Program-made: the position numbers and the translations under genes
Notes under the pieces: generated by a model
What the model was told of the DNA's origin: nothing
The model's input: only the letters and a program-made list of their open reading frames with translations
The model's database searches: none
DNA from: an uncultured Methanoregulaceae archaeon
Lineage (GTDB): Archaea; Halobacteriota; Methanomicrobia; Methanomicrobiales; Methanospirillaceae
Direction of reading: 5' to 3'
Assembly: GCA_963737635.1 (NCBI GenBank)
Contig: CAVTTL010000001.1
Coordinates: 1,920,001 to 1,984,000, forward strand
DNA length: 64,000 bases
In this document: one piece after another, positions 4,678 through 64,000 of the stretch
Numbering within the stretch: the first letter of the stretch is position 1
Layout: each line of letters opens with the position of its first letter

Positions 4678-6077
4678 ACTCTTCATCGCGATGGTCAAGG
4701 AAGAGTGGCGGATCCACTCGACGATGTTTGGGAGCCTCTCGTTTGCGCTTTTTCCGGCCCTCATTTTCTGGATCGCGTTCATGGGATCGTTTCTTCTCCC
4801 GCTGATGCGAAAGAGCCTGCCTTCCGGGGAACTCTCGCTTGTGCTCCACGCAAACTACCTGATGCTTGGCTTTATGGTGGGGGCTTTTGGCCTTATGGGG
4901 GCCGAAGTCATGAACCGCCGGTTCGGGCAGGCAAGCCTGCTTCCCTACGCTGCCCGGAGCCTGCCGCTCTCTGAACGATTTATCTTCGCAAACTTTGTCG
5001 TAAAGGACACCCTCTATTATTTCGTCCTCTGGGTGCTCCCGCTTTCGCTTGGCTTCCTGCTTGCCTCACCCTTCATTGGCGTCCCGGTCACGCTTCCGCT
5101 GCTGCTATCCCTTACCCTCACGCTCTCGTTCCTTTTTGGTCTCTGTGCCGTCTTTTTCCTCTCCTCTTTATATTCGCGATCGAAATCTGCGCTTGCGGCT
5201 GTCCTTATCGCTCTTGTGGCTGCTGCAGCTGCTCTTGCCCTCCTGACCGGCCAGGACCCGGCCCGGTACTTCCCCCCGCTGATGCTCTTTACCGCGTTTT
5301 CGTGGTTGAATCTTATCTTCTCGTGTGCGGCACTTGCGGTTCTCTTTTCTGTCTCGATCTGGCTTTTTTCACCCGAGACGACCGGGACGACAAAACACTA
5401 TGCCGATATGCTTACGCCTCTGTCCGGAAAACTGTCTTTCTTTCCCACGCCGCCTCTTGCCGCAAAGGACCTCATCGATATGTACCGGAGCGGGGGTATG
5501 GTGGGCCAGACGCTTTTTTCCTTTGTCATCCCGCTCGTAGTGATCTGGTTTTTCCTCTCGCTGCTCAACGGCTACCTCCCTTCATATGGCGTGCTCTTGG
5601 AATTTGCGCTTGTAACAGGCGTAATCGCGTCGACGATGTATACATGGCTTACGATGTTTGACACATTTGGCGCCTATGCCTGCCTGCCGGTCAGTGTCCG
5701 CACCGTCATAAAAAGCAAAATAGCGAGCTTCTCGGTCCTCCAGTCTGATTCCTGCGGTCTTTGTTGCTCTTGCCGCCCTGCTCTCCGGGCAGGTGTTCTA
5801 CCTGCTCCCGGCGGTCGTGCTCTGCCTTTCGGTCTCGTTCTACAGCCTCGGGATTACGATCTGGCTGACCGGTCTTGCGCCCAGCGTCCTTGTCTATAAT
5901 GTAAAGGTGATGGTGACGTACCTTGTCCTGATCGGAATAGTACTCGTCACTCTCTCCGCAGTTGCGTTTGCGACACCTTTTGCCGCCCTTGGCGCTATCA
6001 TCCTCTTTGTCCCCGCCGCTTTTTTTGCCCGGCTGGGCTTTGCGAAGTGGGAGGCACGCGAGCAGCCCGGGTTCTGA
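4670..6077 (+). CDS. ABC-2-type multi-pass membrane permease (frameshift near 5745, probably sequencing error)
   Basis: Overlaps the ATPase stop; many TM helices; removing one base at ~5744 joins the 4559..5899 and 5793..6077 ORFs into a continuous hydrophobic protein. Confidence 0.75.
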
Positions 6078-6150
6078 TCTCCTTTTTTTCGCCCGGGGTT
6101 TCCCGGTATAGGAGCAAATCTTTGTATTATTTGCAGACAATAGCAGCATA

Positions 6151-7191
6151 ATGACGTTTCCTGAGACCCACTCCGGTACCGAGCGCCTCCTGTTCCTCCT
6201 TGCCCTTTTTGTGATCATCATTATTGGCATCAGGATAATCGAAACGCCCATAACTATTGTCCTGGTTTCACTGGTGCTTACGCTGCTGCTTTATCCTGCG
6301 ACGCTCTGGCTCCGCACAAAAGGCCTTTCAGCGGCAGCTGCGGTCGGCGTGGTGACGGTGGTCTCGATAGTCTGCATCATTTTTGTCCTGGTCCTGACCG
6401 TCTCATCGTTCAACGTGATCATTGCCGACCTGCCGCAATACCAGAGCGATCTGGCTCTCCGGTTATCAGACATCACGGCTTTCCTCTCGGTACACGGCAT
6501 TAATCCCGGGCGTCTTTTCGCTGCAACCCCCCTTCTCGCAAATAACATCCCGGCGCTGGCCTCATCTCTCATGGATCTCGGCGAGGATATCGTCGACGTC
6601 TTTTTTGTTGCCGTTACGACGTTTTTCATGCTGCTTGCGGCACCACAGATGATCGAAAGAGTCGAATCGCTCTTGCACGATCAGCCGGGAAAACTCCGTC
6701 ATCTCTCGCGGATGAGCGGTTTTGTGGTCGATTTTATGGTCGTACGCACGGAGACTAACTTCGTCCACAGTGTGCTTTTTGGGGGCGTGCTTGCCATTAT
6801 GGGCGTCCACGCCGCGATCCTCTGGGGGGTACTGACGTTTGTCCTGTGCTACATCCCGTATTTTGGCCTCATTCTTGCAGCGATCCCGGCAATCTTCTTT
6901 GCCTGGCTCCAGTTTGGGGTCTGGGGGGCAGTCGCGGTCATTGCCGTGGTCTGCATCCTCAACCTGATCGTAGAGAACCCGGTCTTCTCGTACCTTGCGG
7001 CACGCAGGTTTGAGATACCGGCGCTTGTAGTGATCCTCTCGGTAATTTTCTGGGGCTGGCTGTTTGGCTTTGCCGGGTTGCTTTTCTCGGTTCCCTTTAC
7101 CCTGATGACGGTCACCCTCATTGAATTCAGCGACGACCTCCGCTGGGTCAACACGTTGCTTGGCTTTGAGCATTTGTTTGAAGAGAAATAG
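6151..7191 (+). CDS. AI-2E (PerM/TqsA) family transporter
   Basis: AILWGVLTFVLCYIPYFG, IVENPV..P and SVIFWGWLFGFAGLLFSVP motifs. Confidence 0.9.
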   Translation: MTFPETHSGTERLLFLLALFVIIIIGIRIIETPITIVLVSLVLTLLLYPATLWLRTKGLSAAAAVGVVTVVSIVCIIFVLVLTVSSFNVIIADLPQYQSDLALRLSDITAFLSVHGINPGRLFAATPLLANNIPALASSLMDLGEDIVDVFFVAVTTFFMLLAAPQMIERVESLLHDQPGKLRHLSRMSGFVVDFMVVRTETNFVHSVLFGGVLAIMGVHAAILWGVLTFVLCYIPYFGLILAAIPAIFFAWLQFGVWGAVAVIAVVCILNLIVENPVFSYLAARRFEIPALVVILSVIFWGWLFGFAGLLFSVPFTLMTVTLIEFSDDLRWVNTLLGFEHLFEEK

Positions 7192-11791: not shown

Positions 11792-12143
11792 CGTGAGTGG
11801 GAGGAGTAAGCCTCCTTCTGTTCATGCGGCATTCAGCTCTGCGCCAAACCCGGGCGGATACCGAGCGATCCATTGCCCTGTTCTGGCTTGCACCCGCAGG
11901 GATTCGCCGTTTCATCGTATCCTGTTCCGTAAAAGCGCTCAGCGGGTTACTCGCGCGGACACGTCCGCACTTCTCGCCCCGAAGGGCTCAGCCGCATCAT
12001 AACTGGGAACAGGCCGTGTCGTTTCTGTGCCATTGCCGTGACTCTCGCCACCCATACTTGTGTATGGCTGCGTGCCCGGTGGGTGGGGGGACTTTCCTCA
12101 GCGGCCATCAAAGGCCACCGTCAGCCGCTCTCTCCCTCTCACG
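11792..12143 (-). ncRNA. rnpB: RNase P RNA
   Basis: Minus strand has GAGGAAAGTCC near the 5' end and AACAGAAGGAGGCTTA near the 3' end (P4); the ends pair (GTGAGAGGGAG / CTCCCACTCAC, P1); ~350 nt; T-rich tract after the 3' end. Confidence 0.95.
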
Positions 12144-55771: not shown

Positions 55772-56754
55772 AAGCAGCGCTGATCGGTCTTGGGTCAGTA
55801 GGACGCGGCGTTGGAGAGATGATTGCGAAAAAAAATCACGGCATCACGATCACAGGAGTTGCAGACTCAAAGAGCGGTTCTATCTGCGACGAAGGTATCG
55901 ATATCGAGGAAGTACTCGAACAAAAACGTACCAAAGGTATCTGCGGGAACCAAGCGATCACCGCAGTAGACGTAATCCAAAAAGCGGATTATGATGTCCT
56001 TATTGAAGTGACGCCGACAAATGCGCTTACCGGCGAACCGGCGCTCGGGTACATTCGGGCAGCTCTTGCACGAAAAAAACATATCGTTACCTCGAACAAA
56101 GGCCCAATCGCCCTCGCGTACCATGATTTGTCTGCCCTTGCAAAAAAGAATCACGTTGCACTCCGGTATGAGGCAACAGTCGGCGGCGCTATTCCCATCA
56201 TGCATACAATCGAAGACGGCCTTTCAGGTAACGAGATTCTCGCGATCTACGGGGTTCTCAATGGGACGTGTAATTATATCCTGACCCGGATGGCTGCCGA
56301 AGGTCTTACCTACGAGCAGGCACTCCTCGAGGCACAGGAAATGGGCTTTGCCGAAGCCGATCCGACGTATGATGTGAAGGGAATCGATGCCGCAATAAAA
56401 CTGGTAATCCTGGTTAATACCATCTGGGGAGATGGGATCACATTGTCCGACATTGACCTAACCGGTATCGATCTGCTCACGCCGGATGCACTGCGCCTTG
56501 CAGAAGAGGGCGATAGCACCATCCGGTTGATTGCCGAAGCAATCCCGAGAGAAAAGATCCTCCGTGTTTCACCCCGTCTTATCGAAAAAAGTCACCCCCT
56601 TGTAGTTGACGGTGCATTAAACGCACTTACCCTTGAGACCGACATGGCAAAGGAGATCACTTTGATTGGTAAAGGTGCAGGATCGATCGAAACGGCGAGC
56701 GCCATTATAGGCGATATTCTGTATATCCGCGACCATTATGGCAAGCGTGCTTGA
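55768..56754 (+). CDS. hom: Homoserine dehydrogenase
   Basis: GLGSVG, VTSNKGP, YEATVGGAIP, NGTCNYIL, AEADPTYDV.GIDAA.K, GAG..ETA. Confidence 0.95.
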   Translation: MKAALIGLGSVGRGVGEMIAKKNHGITITGVADSKSGSICDEGIDIEEVLEQKRTKGICGNQAITAVDVIQKADYDVLIEVTPTNALTGEPALGYIRAALARKKHIVTSNKGPIALAYHDLSALAKKNHVALRYEATVGGAIPIMHTIEDGLSGNEILAIYGVLNGTCNYILTRMAAEGLTYEQALLEAQEMGFAEADPTYDVKGIDAAIKLVILVNTIWGDGITLSDIDLTGIDLLTPDALRLAEEGDSTIRLIAEAIPREKILRVSPRLIEKSHPLVVDGALNALTLETDMAKEITLIGKGAGSIETASAIIGDILYIRDHYGKRA

Positions 56755-57845
56755 ACATCGGCGAGAATACCTGCGCCTGATGCGCCGGTTTACTCAGGAT
56801 GCCGGATTTTTTACCGTTACTGACATCCAGAAGGCGGCAGGAATCCCGAGAAGTACGGCCCAGGACTGGGTTACGCGACTTGTTCGGGAAGGATGCGTCC
56901 TTCTAAAAAAAGAGAGATCAGGAAGAGCTCCCGCCCGATATGCTGCCCTTTCTGCAATCCCGCAGAGTACCTGCCGGAGGATCTTTACCACGACGGATGG
57001 CAATCGAGTCGAGATCTTCCATGATTGCATGAGCGGTGCCTGTGCAGACTTTCTGCGGTTACCATCACACCCGTGCGGGGGGAGTGGTGACTGCAGTGAA
57101 ACGCGACGGGACGCTCCTGAGGGAGTGTGCCCGTATAGGCGATGCCCTGGTCTCTATTGGGCTTCCTCCGCATTCCGCCGTTGGGATCTCCGGCGTCAGC
57201 CATATAGGCGATCATATCGTCCAGCACATTCGTTGTATTGGTGGCCCGGCATACTCGCTTACCGATATGATGTCGCGGGCGGAGGGTGTTATTCAGGTTG
57301 AACTCAGTCAGGCCGGGGGAATAGTAGAAGGGAATGTCTGGACCCAGGCACTCACCCATCTTACCATTGGGGTTGATGATACCGATTCAAAGGCAGGCGG
57401 TGCGACGTTTGCCCTCGCGCTTGCACTGCTGACGCAGATATCGGCAGGAAGAACCGTGCTCCCGATAAGTCATCATGTCGTGATGCTTAACGAGAAACTC
57501 GTGAACAAAACTACCGGTAACTCGGCAAGTTACATCGAAGTCGCCGTTCACCCTTCCCGTATCGAGTGGGTAGTGGCAAAGAGCCGCGAGTTTGTTGAAA
57601 ACGAGACCCTTTCACCCGAGTGGGGGCTCGCGTTTCTTAAAGGAATGACTATTCCTTCAGACCTGAGAGAGTATGGAAGAAAGGTGAGGGAAGACGTGGT
57701 CGACCGCGCCGTGGCCGAGGTGGTGGCACAGCGATCCGGGGCAATGCTCTTCGGTGGCAACGGTGTTATCGGAGCACTCGGGGCCGTCGCTCTGGCCAGG
57801 CTGCCGCACGAGATCCAGCTGGATCCGGCAAGAACCGTTTTTTGA
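56738..57845 (+). CDS. Winged-HTH fused to a methanogenesis-marker-11/TiaS-like domain; frameshift near 57050
   Basis: N-terminal HTH (TVTDIQKAAGIPRSTAQDWVTRLVREG); Cys/His-rich middle; C-terminal IGVDDTDS..GGAT, KTTGN, GVIGALGA. Confidence 0.65.
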
Positions 57846-57859
57846 ATCATATGTTATGC

Positions 57860-58015
57860 GCTGTGTATTTCAATCCCACCCAGTGATCCATTATCGGAAG
57901 AATATGCGGTCCGAATACGGAGATAGGTGGCAAGTCTCCAGCAACAACATCGAAGTTACCCGTTTCCATCCGATTGCGATTAAAGTAATGAAAAAAATCG
58001 GGATCGGCATCCTCA
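57860..58015 (+). pseudogene. Decayed arsenate reductase (ArsC/LMW-PTP) fragment
   Basis: MRSEYGDRWQVSSNNIEVTRFHPIAIKVMKKIGIGI resembles the ArsC segment after the P-loop; the catalytic CX5R loop is not intact. Confidence 0.5.
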
Positions 58016-58151
58016 ACAACGTGACAAATTCCTGTAAAGAAGCGATTATATTCATGAAAAGGAATACACCTCGTATAACTCCAGCACTCACATAAGGCCG
58101 CGTTGGAATAGATTAAAAAAACGTGAAACCCTCGCGTTGTAGGTAGGAGGT

Positions 58152-58796
58152 ATGTTGAGCAGCAAATCCATGAATCTCCTCGTTCAATCCCTGATGGAAG
58201 GGAACCGCACGGATGCAATTAGCGAAGCGGATAAACTCATACGTGCTGGTGTTGGGCGCGAGGAGATTATTTCCGGTGGTATCGAGACGGCCATGAAACG
58301 TCTGGAAACGAAATGTACGCTCGATCAGTTTAATCTCCTTGAGATTATGGTTGCGGGCCGGGCCGTCATGGATGTTATGAAATTCCTGTACCCGGCAGGT
58401 GCCGCTCTTCCGTCCACTAAGGGCACTGTAGTGATTGCAACTCTTGAAGGGGATGTACATGATCTTGGAAAGAATATCCTCAGGTTTATTCTCATAACTG
58501 ATGGATACCGGGTCGTCGATTGCGGCCGGGACTGCCAAGTTGCGGCGCTCGCAGAGACTGCGGAGAAGGAGGGGGCCATAGCTGTTTGTGTCAGCGGCTT
58601 GATTACCACGGTTATCCCGGCAGTCAGACTGGTGAGAAGCAGCCTCGCCGCCCGTAGTCTCACCGGTGTACGGATTATCGCAGGAGGGGCAGCGCTCAAA
58701 CAGGCCTCTGCGAAGGCACTTAATGTGGATTTCGTTTGCGATTCGGCATTCGATGCGACCAACTGGCTCGATAGGATCCGGGAGGCGGATACGTGA
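58152..58796 (+). CDS. Corrinoid (B12-binding) protein, MtaC/MtbC-like
   Basis: Cap domain plus EGDVHDLGKNI base-off/His-on motif, SGL.TT, GGAA; GGAGG RBS. Confidence 0.92.
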   Translation: MLSSKSMNLLVQSLMEGNRTDAISEADKLIRAGVGREEIISGGIETAMKRLETKCTLDQFNLLEIMVAGRAVMDVMKFLYPAGAALPSTKGTVVIATLEGDVHDLGKNILRFILITDGYRVVDCGRDCQVAALAETAEKEGAIAVCVSGLITTVIPAVRLVRSSLAARSLTGVRIIAGGAALKQASAKALNVDFVCDSAFDATNWLDRIREADT

Positions 58797-59806
58797 ATAG
58801 TATTGAGCGCATCACCGCAACCGTGAATGGAAACTCGACCGACAGGGTGCCGGTCGTCGCGCAGGTCTTCGGCCATGCCGCTGCAATAAATGACGAAAAA
58901 CTCGGAGCATACCTTAGGGATGGGAGCACTCTTGCCCGGTGCCAGATCGCGGCTCTCGAACGGTACGGGTACGATGCCGTCTTTGCGCTCATGGACGTGT
59001 CAGTTGAAACCGAAGCCGCAGGATCCGTTCTCACCTATTTCGATGACCGGTATCCCGTTATCAAATCGTACGCTCTCACGGATGCCTGTCATCTTGACCG
59101 GCTCCACCAGCCGGATCCTGAACGAGATGGCCGGATGCCAGAGCTGATTCGGGCTGCACGAATACTCCGTGAAGAGGTTGGCGGGGAAACTCTTGTGGTG
59201 GGGTGCGTGCTCGGACCTCTTACGATAACCACCCAATTGCTCGGGATGGAGAAGGCATTATTCCTTGCCGTCGATGACCCGGACCTCTTTGAGGGGATTC
59301 TTGACTTTGCGACTGAAATTGCAATCTCGTTTGGCAAAATGCAGCTCGATGCTGGCGTGCATCTCCCCTTAGTCTTCGATCCTTCATCATCGCCGGTAGT
59401 AGTCCCGCCACAGTTCTTCCGGGAGTTTGAACTCCCCCGCCTCCGGAGGATCTTCTCTGCTTTTAGGACGAGCGGATCGGCAGCAAACTGGCTTCACATT
59501 GCCGGGCCGTCTGCTCCTCTCCTACCTTGGTACCCGGAGGCGGGCGTAGATATCGCGAACTTCGATTACCAAATCAGCGCTAAAGATGCTGCACATGCTC
59601 TTCCCGGAACCTGCCTTGATGGGAATATTAAATCCTACTCGTTTGTTTCTGCGTCCCCCCGCGAGATTGCTCTTGAATCACAGAACCTTCTTGATGCATT
59701 TTCCAAACGCCGGGGATTCATCCTCTCTTCGGGATGCGAAATTCCACCGGAGGCAAAGTCAGAAAACGTAGCCGCCATGGTCAGTGCCGTGCGGGAAAAA
59801 AGGTGA
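58793..59806 (+). CDS. Uroporphyrinogen decarboxylase fold methyltransferase (MtaA/CmuA-like)
   Basis: DRVPV, D.SVETEA.G, PDP..DGRMP, GP.T, FREF..P, GN, FILSSGCEIP. Confidence 0.88.
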   Translation: MNSIERITATVNGNSTDRVPVVAQVFGHAAAINDEKLGAYLRDGSTLARCQIAALERYGYDAVFALMDVSVETEAAGSVLTYFDDRYPVIKSYALTDACHLDRLHQPDPERDGRMPELIRAARILREEVGGETLVVGCVLGPLTITTQLLGMEKALFLAVDDPDLFEGILDFATEIAISFGKMQLDAGVHLPLVFDPSSSPVVVPPQFFREFELPRLRRIFSAFRTSGSAANWLHIAGPSAPLLPWYPEAGVDIANFDYQISAKDAAHALPGTCLDGNIKSYSFVSASPREIALESQNLLDAFSKRRGFILSSGCEIPPEAKSENVAAMVSAVREKR

Positions 59807-59809
59807 CCT

Positions 59810-61418
59810 GTGCCAGTCCTCATGGTTTGTTCCGGTGAACGGACAGTTGAGATAGATTTTACTCCCGGGTTGTCCCTGCGGGAGATACTCGAAGCAACAG
59901 AAATTCCGATACGGACCGGATGCAATGGGAATGGTTCCTGCGGCCTCTGCCGAGTCAGGATCACATCCGGCAAGGTACAGGATCCCTCGCAACAGGAGAT
60001 GCTGGTCATCAATAGCAGCCGTAGCGAGGCAAAGGACGTACGGCTGGCGTGCTACGTTCGTCCTGAACTCGATCTCGGGATCGAAATATGCGGGCCTGCC
60101 CAGGATGCGACATGGAAGATTTTTCCATGTAACCATACAGGGGATATGCTGGTAAAACCTGTATTGGCGGCAACAGAAATGGAAAGCGGCAACTGCAGGG
60201 GCGCATATGGCGTGGCTGTTGACCTTGGGACATCCCAAATCAGCATCTCCATTCTCGAATTAGATACCGGAAGAAGGATCGCGGGCCGGTACGGGACGAA
60301 TCCGCAGGCCGCTTTTGGCGCCGACGTAATGACCCGTCTGGTGGCAGCGACCGGCTCCGTGGAAAAAGCTCGAGCTCCTTCGCACCCGGGTCGTTCATGC
60401 CATCGGCGACGGGCTCGCGGACATCGCCAGCCGGAACGGGGTCGACCTCGCCCGGGTGACCCGACTTGTGCTCGTAGGAAATACAGCGATGCTTGCCCTG
60501 CTCTCTGGGAGAAACTACCCCCTCCTTATCCGGCGGATACGTGGACGGGTACGATCGATTGTCTCCCTGATGAGACAGCCCCTATGGCAGCTGAATGGGG
60601 GATTCATTCTGCAACGATAGATGTCCTGCCGCCGTTCGCCGGATTTGTCGGTTCGGATCTTCTCGCGGGAGTGCAGGCAACCCGGATGATGGAGCTTGAC
60701 AGGCCGGCACTCCTCATTGATTTTGGCACTAACTCCGAAATCGCCCTCTGGGACGGACACAACCTCTTCCTAACCTCAGCCGCCGGCGGACCAGCGTTCG
60801 AAGGGAGCGGCATGCAGTGCGGCATGCCGGCTGAGGCGGGTGCTATCTGCCAGGTCCGATTCCGGAGCCATGGAGCAGAATGCGCGACGATCGCTGGTGT
60901 TCCGGCCCGCGGGATCTGTGGTACCGGTCTCGTTGACCTTATTGCCAACCTTCTCAGAGCCGGGCATTCTGTCAGAGAGGGGCCGTTTCTCACCGGATCA
61001 CAACGGCGTTTTTGTCCTTATAAACGGTGATTTACCAATCGTTCTTACCGGAAAAGATGTCGACCTTTTCCAGCGGGCCAAAGCTGCAGTCGGTGCGGGT
61101 GTCCAGTATCTGATGGAGCGTGCAGGCATCAGCAGCGATGAACTCGAGCGTCTGTATGTCAGTGGAACGTTTGGCAGCAATCTCGATACTGGCAACGCCC
61201 GGACGATCGGCCTCCTCCCGATGATGAGGGATGACCGGATTCGGCTCTGCGGAAATACAGCTTCTGCCGGCTGCGAGCAGGTTCTCGTTGATCCGACAGC
61301 AGTCAGAAAACTGGAAACGGTCAGGCAATCGGCAAGAATCGAAAACCTCGCCGGACTCCCGGACTTCGACAATCTTTTCCTCGAGAATCTGTACCTGCGG
61401 CCGCTGGGGGGTGCCTGA
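59810..61418 (+). CDS. RACo/COG3894-type ATP-dependent corrinoid reductive activator (N-terminal 2Fe-2S + ASKHA); several frameshifts
   Basis: CNGNGSCGLC..RLAC, VDLGTS, FVGSD, DFGTNSE, SAAGGPAFEG, GICGTG, Q.AKAAV.AG, GNTA; the C-terminus is in the 60840..61418 frame. Confidence 0.88.
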
Positions 61419-61421
61419 ACC

Positions 61422-63679
61422 ATGGATAACCGTAGTCAAGATCATACTGATTATTTCAATACCTTCATCAGGACCGCCCAATATATTACGCACCTTACTC
61501 CACAGCAGGATATCCTAACTGAAACCGGGAATGCGCTTGTCAGGTTCTATGGAGCAAACACCGTCGGTTTCTTCGAGCAGCCCAACGGCAGGAAATTGAC
61601 CGGGCATCACTGGATTCTCCCCGATGGAATCGTGCCGGCACGGTTTATGACCCATGAGATCCAAGGTGTGGTCGCTGAAGTAATGGAGACCGGCTTCCTT
61701 GCAACCCACCGGATCGAGCCGGAGGGGTTATCAGCAGTTTTCCTTCCCATTATGTGGGAAAGTAAGATCATGGCCGTGATGACGGTCGCGCACAAAACAC
61801 CCGGTCCGTTGCAGGATGAGCTTCTCAACTCCTATCTCGCGATTTCAGGCCTTGTCAGCACTGCGGTCTCATCAGCGGTCGTATCCTTCAATACTATCGC
61901 CGAGAAAAAGCGTGCCGAAGAGTCCCTGAAAGTGGCTCGGGAGAATCTTGCATTCCTTGTCAAAAACACTCCTGCCATGCTTTACCGGTTCCATGCTTCG
62001 GGTGATCGCGCGGTGACATTCATATCAGAGAACGTCAGAGACCAGCTCGGGTGCGAGCCGGAAGCGTTCATGGACAACCCTGCATTCTTTGAATCACGCA
62101 TCCATCCGGACGATCGGGTACAGATCCAACAATGCGTAGAGAATGCACTTTCTGCCGGCGCGGCCACAGTCGAATACCGGTTCCTCAGAAATGATGGTAC
62201 ATGGCGCTGGATGCATGACGAGATGCGACCGATCAGAAGCAAAACCGGTGAACCCGCCGAACTTATCGGGTACTGGATTGACATCACCCAGAAGAAGAAA
62301 GTGGAGGAGACACTGGTCCGGAATAATGAGGAGCTCTCAGCGCTTAACGAGGAACTCAACGCGATCAACGAGGAACTCACTGCAACTCAGGAAGAATTGC
62401 GCCAAGCCAACGATGAACTTGCCAAGAACGAGCAGGATCTTCTCCGGAAGAACGATGATCTTAGAATGATTAATGAGGAACAAATCGCGATGCAGGAGGA
62501 ACTCCAGCAGAACAATGAAGAGCTCTTAAAGCTGAGCGTGCGCTCAGTGAGACAGGACAGTACCTGGACAACCTCATCAATTACGCAAACGCTCCTATTA
62601 TCGTATGGAACCCGCAGTTCCGGATCACCCGGTTCAACCACGCATTTGAGCGTCTGACCGGGCGAGCCGCTGAAACCGTAATCGGCCGGTCGCTTGATAT
62701 CCTCTTTCCCGAGGACCGGAAGATAGAGATGATGACGAAAATCCGCAGCACCATTTTGGGTGAGCAATGGGAGTCGGTCGAGATCCCAATTCGGCATTTC
62801 GATGAGAGTGTCCGGATTGTGCTCTGGAACTCCGCAACGCTTTTCCGTCCTGACGGGAAGTCTGTGTTGTCGGTCATCGCACAGGGCCAGGATATCACCT
62901 TAAGAAAACGTATCGAGGCGGATCTGGTACTAAAGAACAAGGAACTTACCGATGTAGAGCAGGAACTCCGGCAGAACGTCGACAAGCTTGCCGCAAGTGA
63001 GCGAATGCTCATAGAGAACGAGGCGAAACTGAGGGAGGCTCTTGCTGAAAAAGATGTTCTGCTTGCCGAAATCCATCACCGGGTCAAGAACAACCTCACG
63101 GCGTTCATCTCCCTGCTCAGTCTCGAAGGTTCTACAGAAGATACGCCCACCGGGAGGCTGCTCAGACAGGACCTGCAGAACCGGGCACGGAGCATGGCGC
63201 TCATCCATGAGACGCTCTACCGGACCAATAAGTTCGATGAAGTTGACGTGGGAGTTTACCTGACAACGCTTGTCGGCCAGATAGCAAATTCATTCAGAAC
63301 CACCCCATCCGTAAAAACACTCATTGACGCTCACGGCGTAATGCTCGATTTACCACGTGCGACACCATTGGGGTTAATTGTCAACGAATTGGTGACAAAC
63401 TCGTTCAAGTACGCATTCCCTGATTCCTTCGATGTTGAGGCAATCCGTAACGCTCCACCCACCATCGCGATCGCGCTTGCAAAAGAAGATGGGACGTATA
63501 TCCTGTCCTTCGGGGACAACGGTGTCGGGCTGCCTACCGGCATCGATCTCACAAAGACCCAGACCCTCGGTCTGAAACTGGTGAACTTCCTCGCGCGCCA
63601 CCAGCTCCGGGCAAAGATTGAGGTCAATTCAGAAAACGGGGTGGAGTTCGTGTTCAGATTCCGGGAAAACGGGGAGTAA
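61422..63679 (+). CDS. Cytoplasmic GAF-like/PAS/coiled-coil/PAS sensor histidine kinase (HisKA_2 type); frameshift near 62530
   Basis: IHPDDR PAS, NEEL heptads, a second PAS (LDNLINYANAPIIVWN) in the shifted frame, EIHHRVKNNL, NELVTNSFKYAF, DNGVG, TLGL.LV. Confidence 0.88.
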
Positions 63680-64000
63680 GGTAAGGTATGCGAACTACAT
63701 CCCTTCTCGCTGGGAAAGGTAACGGTCTGATTGCCATGCACCTGACCCCCTCGCACTGATTCAGCCATCACGTCAGGTTTTTCCTGTATTTTGTCAGCCG
63801 GAGATCCTTGACACTTAATTTCACGTCATTCCTTTAATACCCATGAAAAACTGCCCGCTCGGCAAATACGCGTGGATTTTTTCTCCAAAGAATGAAGGAG
63901 AGAACGCCAAGCCGGTCTTTTTTTTGTTTTACGCAATGAAGTCTTCGGCGATCATTCTGCAGAGCCGGTTACTCTCTGCAAGAAATCCCGGGGTTTCCCT

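Follow-up and report, generated by a model that had tools for sequence, protein, structure and literature searches.

Does a set of corrinoid methyl-transfer genes that is followed by a sensor kinase gene, in the absence of a substrate methyltransferase, serve metabolism or signalling in a non-methylotrophic methanogen? The question is raised by positions 58152..63679 (+ strand) of a 64,000-nucleotide stretch, here called the window, of the genome of an uncultured Methanoregulaceae archaeon. Listing of open reading frames (ORFs), together with Pfam and NCBIfam scans, places there four same-strand genes that encode a corrinoid protein, an MtaA/CmuA-like protein and a RACo-type activase, referred to below as the kit, and a sensor kinase. 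Corrinoid methyltransferase kits are normally read as catabolic, and in non-methylotrophs they are found puzzling or are scored as methylotrophy potential in metagenome surveys. On the sequence evidence, the best explanation is that the four genes form one conserved, horizontally spread sensory cassette, which in this archaeon would act as an accessory sensing device and not as a methanogenesis pathway. The kit would provide the sensory input and the N-terminal GAF domain of the kinase would read the state of the corrinoid protein, a reading to which a probability of about 0.5 is given. An earlier note on this DNA had described the genes as tightly packed, with junctions at 58793/58796, 59806/59810 and 61418/61422, and ORF listing gives the same picture (a 4-nucleotide (nt) overlap, 3 nt and 3 nt, respectively). 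The same note had seen no substrate methyltransferase in the cluster, which holds, and the genome (90% complete) also lacks matches to Pfam MTTB, MtaB, MtmB and Dimeth_Pyl.

The association between the kit and a signalling protein was followed across prokaryotes by a survey anchored on the MtaA-like gene, in which one genome per species was taken and neighbours were located by tblastn with the window proteins. This yielded 77 loci, with a best-segment identity of 52-75% in 75 of them (the outliers being L079, 41%, and L083, 76% over 34 residues). According to record names, they span at least nine named phyla, and the host groups include Nitrospirota, Thermodesulfobacteriota, Chloroflexota (Oscillochloris, Candidatus Chloroploca), Acidobacteriota, Campylobacterota, Pseudomonadota (Sulfuricella, Gallionellaceae, sulfur-oxidising gammaproteobacteria), Bacillota (including Candidatus Dichloromethanomonas elyunquensis), Promethearchaeota and Methanoregulaceae-like archaea. 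Cultured or enriched organisms are represented, by record or protein names, by Sulfuricella sp. T08, Candidatus Chloroploca asiatica B7-9, Methanosphaerula palustris and Candidatus Dichloromethanomonas elyunquensis. Directly upstream of the MtaA-like gene lies the corrinoid gene in 74 of the 77 loci, and the remaining three are at contig ends; RACo lies directly downstream in 70, and is absent despite available sequence in L029, L030, L039, L044 and L050. The family-specific N-terminal domain of the kinase, named hkN, was detected by tblastn directly behind the kit in 68 loci, and contig ends account for five of the nine misses. L072 and L073 carry a divergent hkN (hhalign probability 99%, E 5e-20 and 2.5e-18, respectively), L048 has a protein with a Tll0287-like domain and GGDEF in place of hkN, and nothing recognisable follows the kit in L046. 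A signalling protein is thereby found directly behind the kit in 71 of the 72 assessable loci, and hkN in 70 of them. The spacing is equally tight, with a median of 0 nt (quartiles -4 to +3) between the preceding stop codon and the projected hkN start.

The converse survey, a metagenome scan with a 16-row hkN sub-alignment that is biased to the bacterial majority clade, gave 44 hkN loci, of which 41 have kit genes directly upstream (RACo immediately before hkN in 28 and the MtaA-like gene in 13). One locus is a clear exception and two are not assessable (L087, with 131 nt upstream only, and L127, a 28-residue match). The earlier note had asked whether signalling outputs with the N-terminal domain of the kinase come after the trio in every case; the answer is essentially yes, and in both directions. 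The pattern that would have contradicted a signalling role, namely trios that occur mostly without the kinase or beside substrate methyltransferases, is not the one displayed by the 77 loci.

What lies downstream of hkN is exchangeable. By Pfam, the 68 hkN ORFs comprise 26 histidine kinases (HATPase_c together with HisKA or HisKA_2), 7 hybrid kinases that also carry a receiver domain, 13 GGDEF diguanylate cyclases, 12 HD-GYP phosphodiesterases and 10 that are cut off, PAS-only or without a recognised output, and PAS or further canonical GAF domains are often found between hkN and the output. The domain is also well represented beyond these loci: a profile search of 1.84 billion cluster representatives returned 408 hkN matches at E<=1e-3, 343 at <=1e-10 and 235 at <=1e-30, almost always starting at residue 1. 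When the best 150 of these representatives were classed with profiles built from the output segments of the 68 ORFs, 69 were assigned to HATPase, 30 to HATPase+REC, 9 to GGDEF, 4 to HD-GYP, 1 to GGDEF+HD-GYP and 37 to none; Pfam scans of 20 of the 37 revealed three SpoIIE phosphatases and four HisKA_2 or HisKA_3 kinases, the rest being mostly PAS-only fragments. In their source records, hkN proteins bear nothing but generic names ('ATP-binding protein', 'PAS domain S-box protein', 'sensor histidine kinase', 'HD-GYP domain-containing protein'). Placed on the tree of the MtaA-like protein, three output classes require at least five changes (57 of 71 rows), in a tree from which six rows with X or stop characters were excluded, to which two distant outgroups were added, and in which 21 of 68 inner branches are open and the backbone is unresolved.

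Gene fusions also occur among these proteins. In L048:1838-4492 (+), the MtaA-like protein and RACo are fused into a single product of 885 residues (URO-D, Fer2, RACo_middle, RACo_C_ter). Protein P0086 (516 residues) bears a 2Fe-2S ferredoxin domain, 44% identical to the N-domain of the window RACo, before hkN (residues 120-289), and P0100 apparently bears the tail of a RACo-like ferredoxin domain.

Metabolic partners were sought by clustering all 3234 ORFs of the 77 loci into families. Beyond the kit and the signalling protein, no gene family is present in more than 15 of the 77 loci, and seven annotated representatives of smaller families correspond to lineage-specific neighbours (parts of RND efflux systems, a racemase, a cytochrome c, a QueG-like protein and one without Pfam match). 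Across the 77 loci, no methyltransferase of the MtaB, MttB, MtmB or MtbB type, no transporter, no methyl-acceptor or demethylating enzyme and no DNA-binding regulator is conserved nearby. Most of the hosts are bacteria, and the kit therefore does not feed methanogenesis in them.

As it stands in the window, the sequence would suggest that two of the four genes are damaged. The RACo gene shifts frame three times (ORFs 59810-61030 and 60840-61418, plus an internal 2->0->2 change of frame) and the kinase gene shifts frame once (ORFs 61422-62657 and 62729-63679); these breaks are absent from the earlier note. The region 58100-63700 was compared with Logan contigs from four public runs, each belonging to a different study (X1, X2, X3 and X6), which show the presence of an intact form rather than the absence of a broken one, and of which X1 is possibly the source sample of the window assembly. 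No RNA data set was listed among the public runs that contain the sequence. All four share four single-base differences from the window, three in RACo (60371, one base less; 60533, +C; 60962, one less) and one in the kinase (62523, +T), and these positions coincide exactly with the frameshift sites. Once the four changes are applied, a single RACo ORF of 535 residues ending at 61418 and a single kinase ORF of 752 residues ending at 63679 are obtained. Because none of the four runs has the indels, the frame breaks are read as assembly errors: the four indels are most likely consensus errors of the assembly and not signs of decay, and the view of the locus as a pseudogene-bearing or relic operon was dropped. 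The four runs also agree against the window at five substitutions (58497, A>G; 58627-58628, GA>AG; 61263-61264, TC>CT). Other genes of this genome are probably broken likewise, which may explain why it is only 90% complete and yet consists of 4 contigs.

The linkage of kit and signalling protein in both directions and across domains of life, the exchange of outputs, the lack of a metabolic partner and the integrity of the genes therefore mark this pattern as that of an input module of signal transduction. At the level of sequence comparison, the signalling link of the kit is strongly supported, and the mechanism through cobalt states is put forward as a hypothesis. The individual proteins bear on that hypothesis in different ways.

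The first gene (58152..58796, +) encodes the corrinoid (B12) carrier protein of 214 residues, with Pfam matches to B12-binding (55 bits) and, under the cut-off of 23, B12-binding_2 (20.4 bits). Its closest solved structure is MtaC (2i2x_B, E 3.9e-19). In the 61 members of the corrinoid family, G100-D101-x-H103-x-x-G106, S148-G149-L150 and G178-G179 are invariant, which we take to be the D-x-H-x-x-G, S-x-L and G-G elements of base-off/His-on B12 binding; the expected B12-binding motif is thus in place. The 61 members also share an invariant, family-specific cap motif with a cysteine (C55 T56 ... F60 N61 L62 L63 E64), which was not seen in three aligned solved relatives. The protein scores below the curated cut-offs of TIGR02370 (pyl_corrinoid, 102.5 vs 215.3 bits) and MtaC_Meth (94.7 vs 420 bits), and is therefore assigned to a separate subfamily of MtaC-type proteins. 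Binding of a corrinoid by this carrier, and its cycling between Co(I) and methyl-Co(III), are predicted.

The second gene (58793..59806, +) encodes the MtaA/CmuA-like methyltransferase of 337 residues, which has the UroD (TIM-barrel) fold, as indicated by a match to Pfam URO-D of 224 bits over residues 4-335. The window genome (90% complete) has no other gene of the URO-D family. MtaA is its best solved relative (4ay7, E 5.4e-25) and aligns over the entire length, and the scores stay below the curated cut-offs of TIGR01463 (156 vs 235 bits), PRK06252 (147 vs 244), MtaA_Meth (113 vs 400) and MtbA (100 vs 600). The zinc-binding residues of MtaA, which activate the thiol of coenzyme M (CoM), are presumably the His-x-Cys ... 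Cys set. In this alignment, LHICG of 4ay7 is matched by LHIAG: the Cys of H-x-C is replaced by Ala (A237) in 70 of the 75 family members, His (H235) occurs in 61 and gives way to Asn in 12, and the distal Cys (C315) is retained in 73. With the cysteine of H-x-C lost in 70 of 75 members, the family therefore lacks the zinc motif of a CoM methyltransferase. This substitution and the mostly bacterial hosts are the basis on which the MtaA-like enzyme, judged by its sequence, is taken not to be a CoM methyltransferase. Additionally, H190 (75/75) and C274 (73/75) are specific to the family.

The third gene (59810..61418, +) encodes the RACo/RamA-type reductive activase, with 535 residues after removal of three indels. 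Once corrected, it combines in one protein an N-terminal 2Fe-2S ferredoxin domain (Fer2, with Cys at residues 38, 44, 47 and 81), a middle domain (RACo_middle) and a C-terminal ATPase domain of the ASKHA type (RACo_C_ter), the architecture of an activase; the uncorrected pieces do not reach the NCBIfam cut-offs of AcsV and RamA. Two further RACo-like genes are found in the genome. One is split over three frames, at G000:C1:1994336-1995102 (-), about 10 kb past the window end, and the other is intact (C1:1769113-1769895, in a 640-residue open frame).

The fourth gene (61422..63679, +) encodes the sensor histidine kinase, of 752 residues after removal of one indel. In order, the protein presents a GAF-like domain, PAS_3, a coiled coil, a second PAS-like region, HisKA_2 and HATPase_c. 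The PAS_3 domain (62016..62273, +) covers residues 199-284 with 75 bits; the HisKA_2 phospho-acceptor domain (63068..63292, +) and the HATPase_c catalytic domain (63362..63667, +) cover, respectively, residues 114-188 (75 bits) and 212-313 (29.9 bits, that is, about 30) of ORF 62729-63679. This succession is that of a HisKA_2/HWE-type kinase, and the string EIHHRVKNNL is present, which we take to be the H-box of the HisKA_2 family. The earlier note had called the kinase soluble, which is plausible: the peak 19-residue hydropathy is 1.62 and falls on the C-terminal helix of the GAF domain.

The hkN domain proper (61422..61946, +) comprises a divergent GAF fold and the beginning of its C-terminal helix. 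Residues 1-170 of the kinase match no Pfam or NCBIfam family, GAF, GAF_2 and GAF_3 included, and no Pfam match is found in the hkN region of 67 of 68 homologues, the other giving a single weak GAF match (L055, 3e-5). The AlphaFold2 model of hkN, based on 67 homologues, has a predicted local distance difference test (pLDDT) value of 90.1 and a predicted template-modelling (pTM) score of 0.82; Foldseek ranks only GAF domains at the top of its PDB matches (E 3e-7 to 1e-4, template-modelling (TM) score of about 0.6), and an ESM Atlas feature search with hkN leads to GAF clusters at 0.95-0.97. From these results hkN is therefore regarded as a divergent GAF family, and the description of the N-terminal domain as GAF-like, given before from the sequence, was right. 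Q20, Y21 and L139 are invariant, E34 is invariant or nearly so, and there is no conserved cysteine. Conservation is concentrated on helices 1 (towards its end), 2 and 5 (the C-terminal helix, over its first part), and is lowest in the β2-α3 segment (0.85-1.4 bits, with insertions), which presumably helps to cover the ligand pocket in canonical GAF domains. This pattern weakly favours a protein-contact surface over a conserved small-molecule pocket. Complex prediction for the corrinoid protein with GAF residues 1-160 gave 0.01, 0.41 and 0.33 in three runs and 0.15, 0.00 and 0.00 in controls, values that are used for neither side of the argument.

In the mechanism that is proposed, the MtaA-like enzyme would shuttle a methyl group between a small molecule and the cobalt of the carrier, and RACo would return oxidised Co(II) to Co(I) at the expense of ATP and low-potential electrons. 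The share of the carrier that is present as methyl-Co(III), Co(I) and Co(II) would in this way report the availability of methyl donor or acceptor as well as the redox and energy state of the cell. The GAF domain would read the state of the carrier, most likely by docking on it as a methyltransferase would, and its long C-terminal helix would relay the result to the output, which is the HisKA_2 kinase here and may elsewhere be the synthesis or breakdown of cyclic di-GMP (c-di-GMP) or a PP2C phosphatase. That this amounts to a new class of sensory input, in which the methylation or redox state of an enzymatically written, ATP-reset B12 protein is the signal and a dedicated GAF adaptor reads it, falls somewhat short of an even chance. 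As a reasonable first guess, the signal may be a methylated sulfur compound, because many hosts are sulfur-cycling by their record names and relatives of MtaA act on methylthiols (10.1101/548461).

Several points weigh against this picture. The contact between GAF domain and carrier, the direction of the information flow and the stimulus are points that we infer. As far as the gene content tells, there would be one methyltransferase and no acceptor pathway, which leaves the route of methyl unloading unaccounted for. No response regulator gene is conserved beside the cassette in the 77 loci. hkN without an adjoining kit does exist: in L113, the 6 kb upstream are kit-free, and the complete, 2.92-Mb G113:C1 carries a full cassette (L137) together with an orphan hkN kinase (L136) that has no kit within 6.6 kb upstream, so that one kit might serve two signalling proteins there. 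In L139 (G362:C309), the kit at 5820-6791 is decayed, with an N-terminal corrinoid fragment abutting a C-terminal RACo fragment and the MtaA-like gene gone, and an open 1782-residue hkN kinase frame stands behind the fragments. The cassette is also rare in close relatives, as hkN occurs in 7 of the 401 Methanomicrobiales genomes searched, all of one family, and in 4 of the 103 genomes of the window's genus, the window genome included. Sensor kinases that adjoin the genes they regulate are common. Among methyltransferase-associated kinases, MsmS and RdmS sense through their own cofactor or through thiols (PMC6944256).

This precedent leads to another account, in which the kit is a small metabolic or detoxifying methyltransferase system, the downstream protein is its regulator or companion and the GAF domain binds the substrate or product itself instead of reading the carrier. 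By analogy with MtpA/MtpC, the substrate of the MtaA-like enzyme would then be a methylated compound of sulfur or selenium, a methyl halide or a methoxy compound. Small-molecule binding is common among GAF domains, and the many hosts in sulfur-cycling lineages would suit such a substrate. One MtaA homologue together with a corrinoid protein is able to perform the substrate half-reaction: with methylmercaptopropionate as donor, MtpA methylates cob(I)alamin, and its complex with MtpC is stable (10.1101/548461). A role in methyl-sulfur or methyl-selenide metabolism has been proposed in the work on mlp clusters (PMC10418091), and MsmS and RdmS regulate methyl-sulfide methyltransferase genes (PMC6944256). 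However, GGDEF, HD-GYP and SpoIIE outputs are not normally controllers of one operon, neither a DNA-binding regulator or response regulator nor a transporter or methyl-acceptor enzyme is conserved nearby, and the segment of the GAF domain that would cover the pocket is its least conserved one. The link, being bidirectional and extending across domains of life, is also tighter than the usual pairing of a regulator with its target, and this account is considered rather unlikely.

If the kit does provide the input, what it detects may be damage rather than a methyl compound: light, by splitting the Co-C bond photolytically, or an oxidant (O2 or N2O, for example) would destroy methyl-Co(III) or Co(I), the GAF domain would report the loss, and the enzymes would be the kit for resetting the carrier. 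Co(I) oxidises readily, a reset would require precisely a reductive activase and a methyltransferase, and several hosts are anoxygenic phototrophs by their record names (Oscillochloris, Candidatus Chloroploca). B12-binding domains are, moreover, established light sensors and are predicted in many signalling architectures (PMC8717448). This version appears improbable, as most hosts, this methanogen included, come from records of dark anoxic peat, soil and sediment, and the reset would still require a methyl donor. B12 photoreceptors, in addition, are not known to need adjoining enzymes. A further proposal, that the kit methylates a residue of the GAF domain in a B12-dependent counterpart of chemotaxis receptor methylation, would account for a GAF domain that always accompanies a methyl-transfer kit without evident acceptor, and Q20, Y21 and E34, invariant or nearly so, would be at hand. 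It is nevertheless highly improbable: methyl-cobalamin enzymes with this fold usually have thiolate acceptors and the domain has no conserved cysteine, the MtaA-like enzyme is without the thiol-activating H-x-C zinc motif, and no conserved demethylating enzyme is found nearby. The carrier state read by the GAF domain is therefore kept as the preferred interpretation of the cassette.

Around the cassette, the upstream intergenic region (57846..58151, +) contains no ORF of at least 150 residues on either strand and no coding-looking ORF on the + strand; it has an A-rich stretch and would hold the probable promoter and the ribosome-binding region, with GGAGGT 4 nt upstream of the ATG of the corrinoid gene at 58152. 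Further upstream, ORFs 56738-57301 (a TrmB/IclR-type HTH protein) and 57036-57845 (with a TiaS_TCKD match), both on the + strand, overlap in different frames and may be one gene split by another indel error. An Rfam scan of the window and four loci found no riboswitch at the cassette; in L035 (Nitrospiraceae), a cobalamin riboswitch (5925-6118, -, 105 bits) lies 3.3 kb upstream of it on the opposite strand, and the window has an archaeal RNase P RNA at 11795-12140 (-, 209.8 bits). A gene for a receiver-PAS-kinase hybrid is present 3.7 kb downstream of the cassette (G000:C1, window-scale 67343-68806, +) and is not conserved in other loci. In L142 (G346:C11, 334-3015), from the same genus, two HisKA_2-type kinase paralogues, 52-67% identical to the catalytic part of the window kinase and both with frame breaks in tblastn, are found just upstream of the cassette.

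An immediate consequence concerns annotation, in that an MtaA-like gene of this family calls for caution before it is taken as evidence of methylotrophic methanogenesis in Methanoregulaceae-like genomes. If the kit is indeed an input, B12 chemistry would take its place beside haem, flavin and bilin among the cofactors on which chemical or redox sensing is built, the 343 cluster representatives at E<=1e-10, annotated only as 'PAS domain' or 'ATP-binding', would gain an explanation, and a handle would be obtained on what the anaerobes of peat, soil and freshwater sediment monitor. It would be the first case of corrinoid methyl-transfer chemistry used for sensing instead of metabolism or light detection, with the same module connected to two-component, c-di-GMP and PP2C phosphatase signalling across at least nine bacterial and archaeal phyla.

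With regard to known systems, a full-text literature search, from which most subscription journals and supplements were outside scope, found no description of this cassette. MtaABC-type methylotrophy was rejected as its identity, as was the methanol regulator of E. limosum, which is AraC-type. MtpA/MtpC of Methanosarcina acetivorans, to which MtsA/MtsB of M. barkeri is comparable, resembles the cassette in having one MtaA-family methyltransferase and one MtaC-type corrinoid protein, with no partner of the MtaB/MttB type. In that pair, MtpA uses a methylthiol compound to methylate cob(I)alamin and complexes with MtpC (10.1101/548461). However, MtpA/MtpC feed methanogenesis in methylotrophs, whereas the cassette is mostly bacterial, is without the Cys of H-x-C, scores under the MtaA/CmuA cut-offs and is tied to a signalling protein. 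The type 1 mlp clusters of Kountz and Balskus are found across anaerobes, non-methylotrophic methanogens included; by definition they contain at least Mlp2 and Mlp3, and 73% are from Firmicutes (PMC10418091). The cassette has a single UroD-fold gene, the sole one in the genome, and was rejected as a type 1 mlp cluster, which needs two or more Mlps. The main text of that work, supplements being outside scope, does not contain 'GAF', 'sensor' or 'two-component', and uses 'kinase' for metabolic enzymes only (PMC10418091).

MsmS and RdmS of Methanosarcina acetivorans are comparable in being soluble PAS/GAF kinases of a methanogen whose genes adjoin those of corrinoid methyltransferases; haem or thiols within their own GAF domains serve them for sensing, and they control methyl-sulfide genes (PMC6944256). 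Unlike them, hkN has no conserved Cys, forms a separate GAF family and is joined to four or more output types in bacteria and archaea. The mec cassette of anaerobic dichloromethane catabolism also brings together an MtaA/CmuA-family methyltransferase, a corrinoid protein, a RACo-type activator and a sensor kinase, within ten genes (mecA-J) that further include a PocR-domain kinase, a DNA-binding regulator, an MtrH-type methyltransferase and a transporter (10.1101/2021.08.30.458270). The present unit was not identified with mec, as it has four genes and no PocR kinase, regulator, MtrH-type or transporter gene; Candidatus Dichloromethanomonas elyunquensis, a mec host, carries the present cassette as well (L072).

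CarH, AerR and the photoglobin/B12 hubs share with the cassette the use of a B12-binding domain in signalling, often together with kinase, GGDEF, PAS and GAF domains (PMC8717448). In these cases the effector or photoglobin has the B12 domain fused to it or next to it, and neither a methyltransferase nor an activase is required, whereas the carrier of the cassette is a methyl-transfer protein of the MtaC type, unlike B12 photoreceptors; identity with a photoglobin/B12 hub was rejected. In operons of the H-NOX type, a stand-alone haem sensor protein is encoded beside a kinase or a diguanylate cyclase, and the output varies by species. The cassette shares this logic and differs in that its sensor would be a corrinoid protein with its own methyltransferase and ATP-dependent activase, read by a dedicated GAF receiver. 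It can accordingly be described as a variant on accessory-sensor-coupled signalling and on B12-based sensing, with a substantial chance that its mechanism is new in kind.

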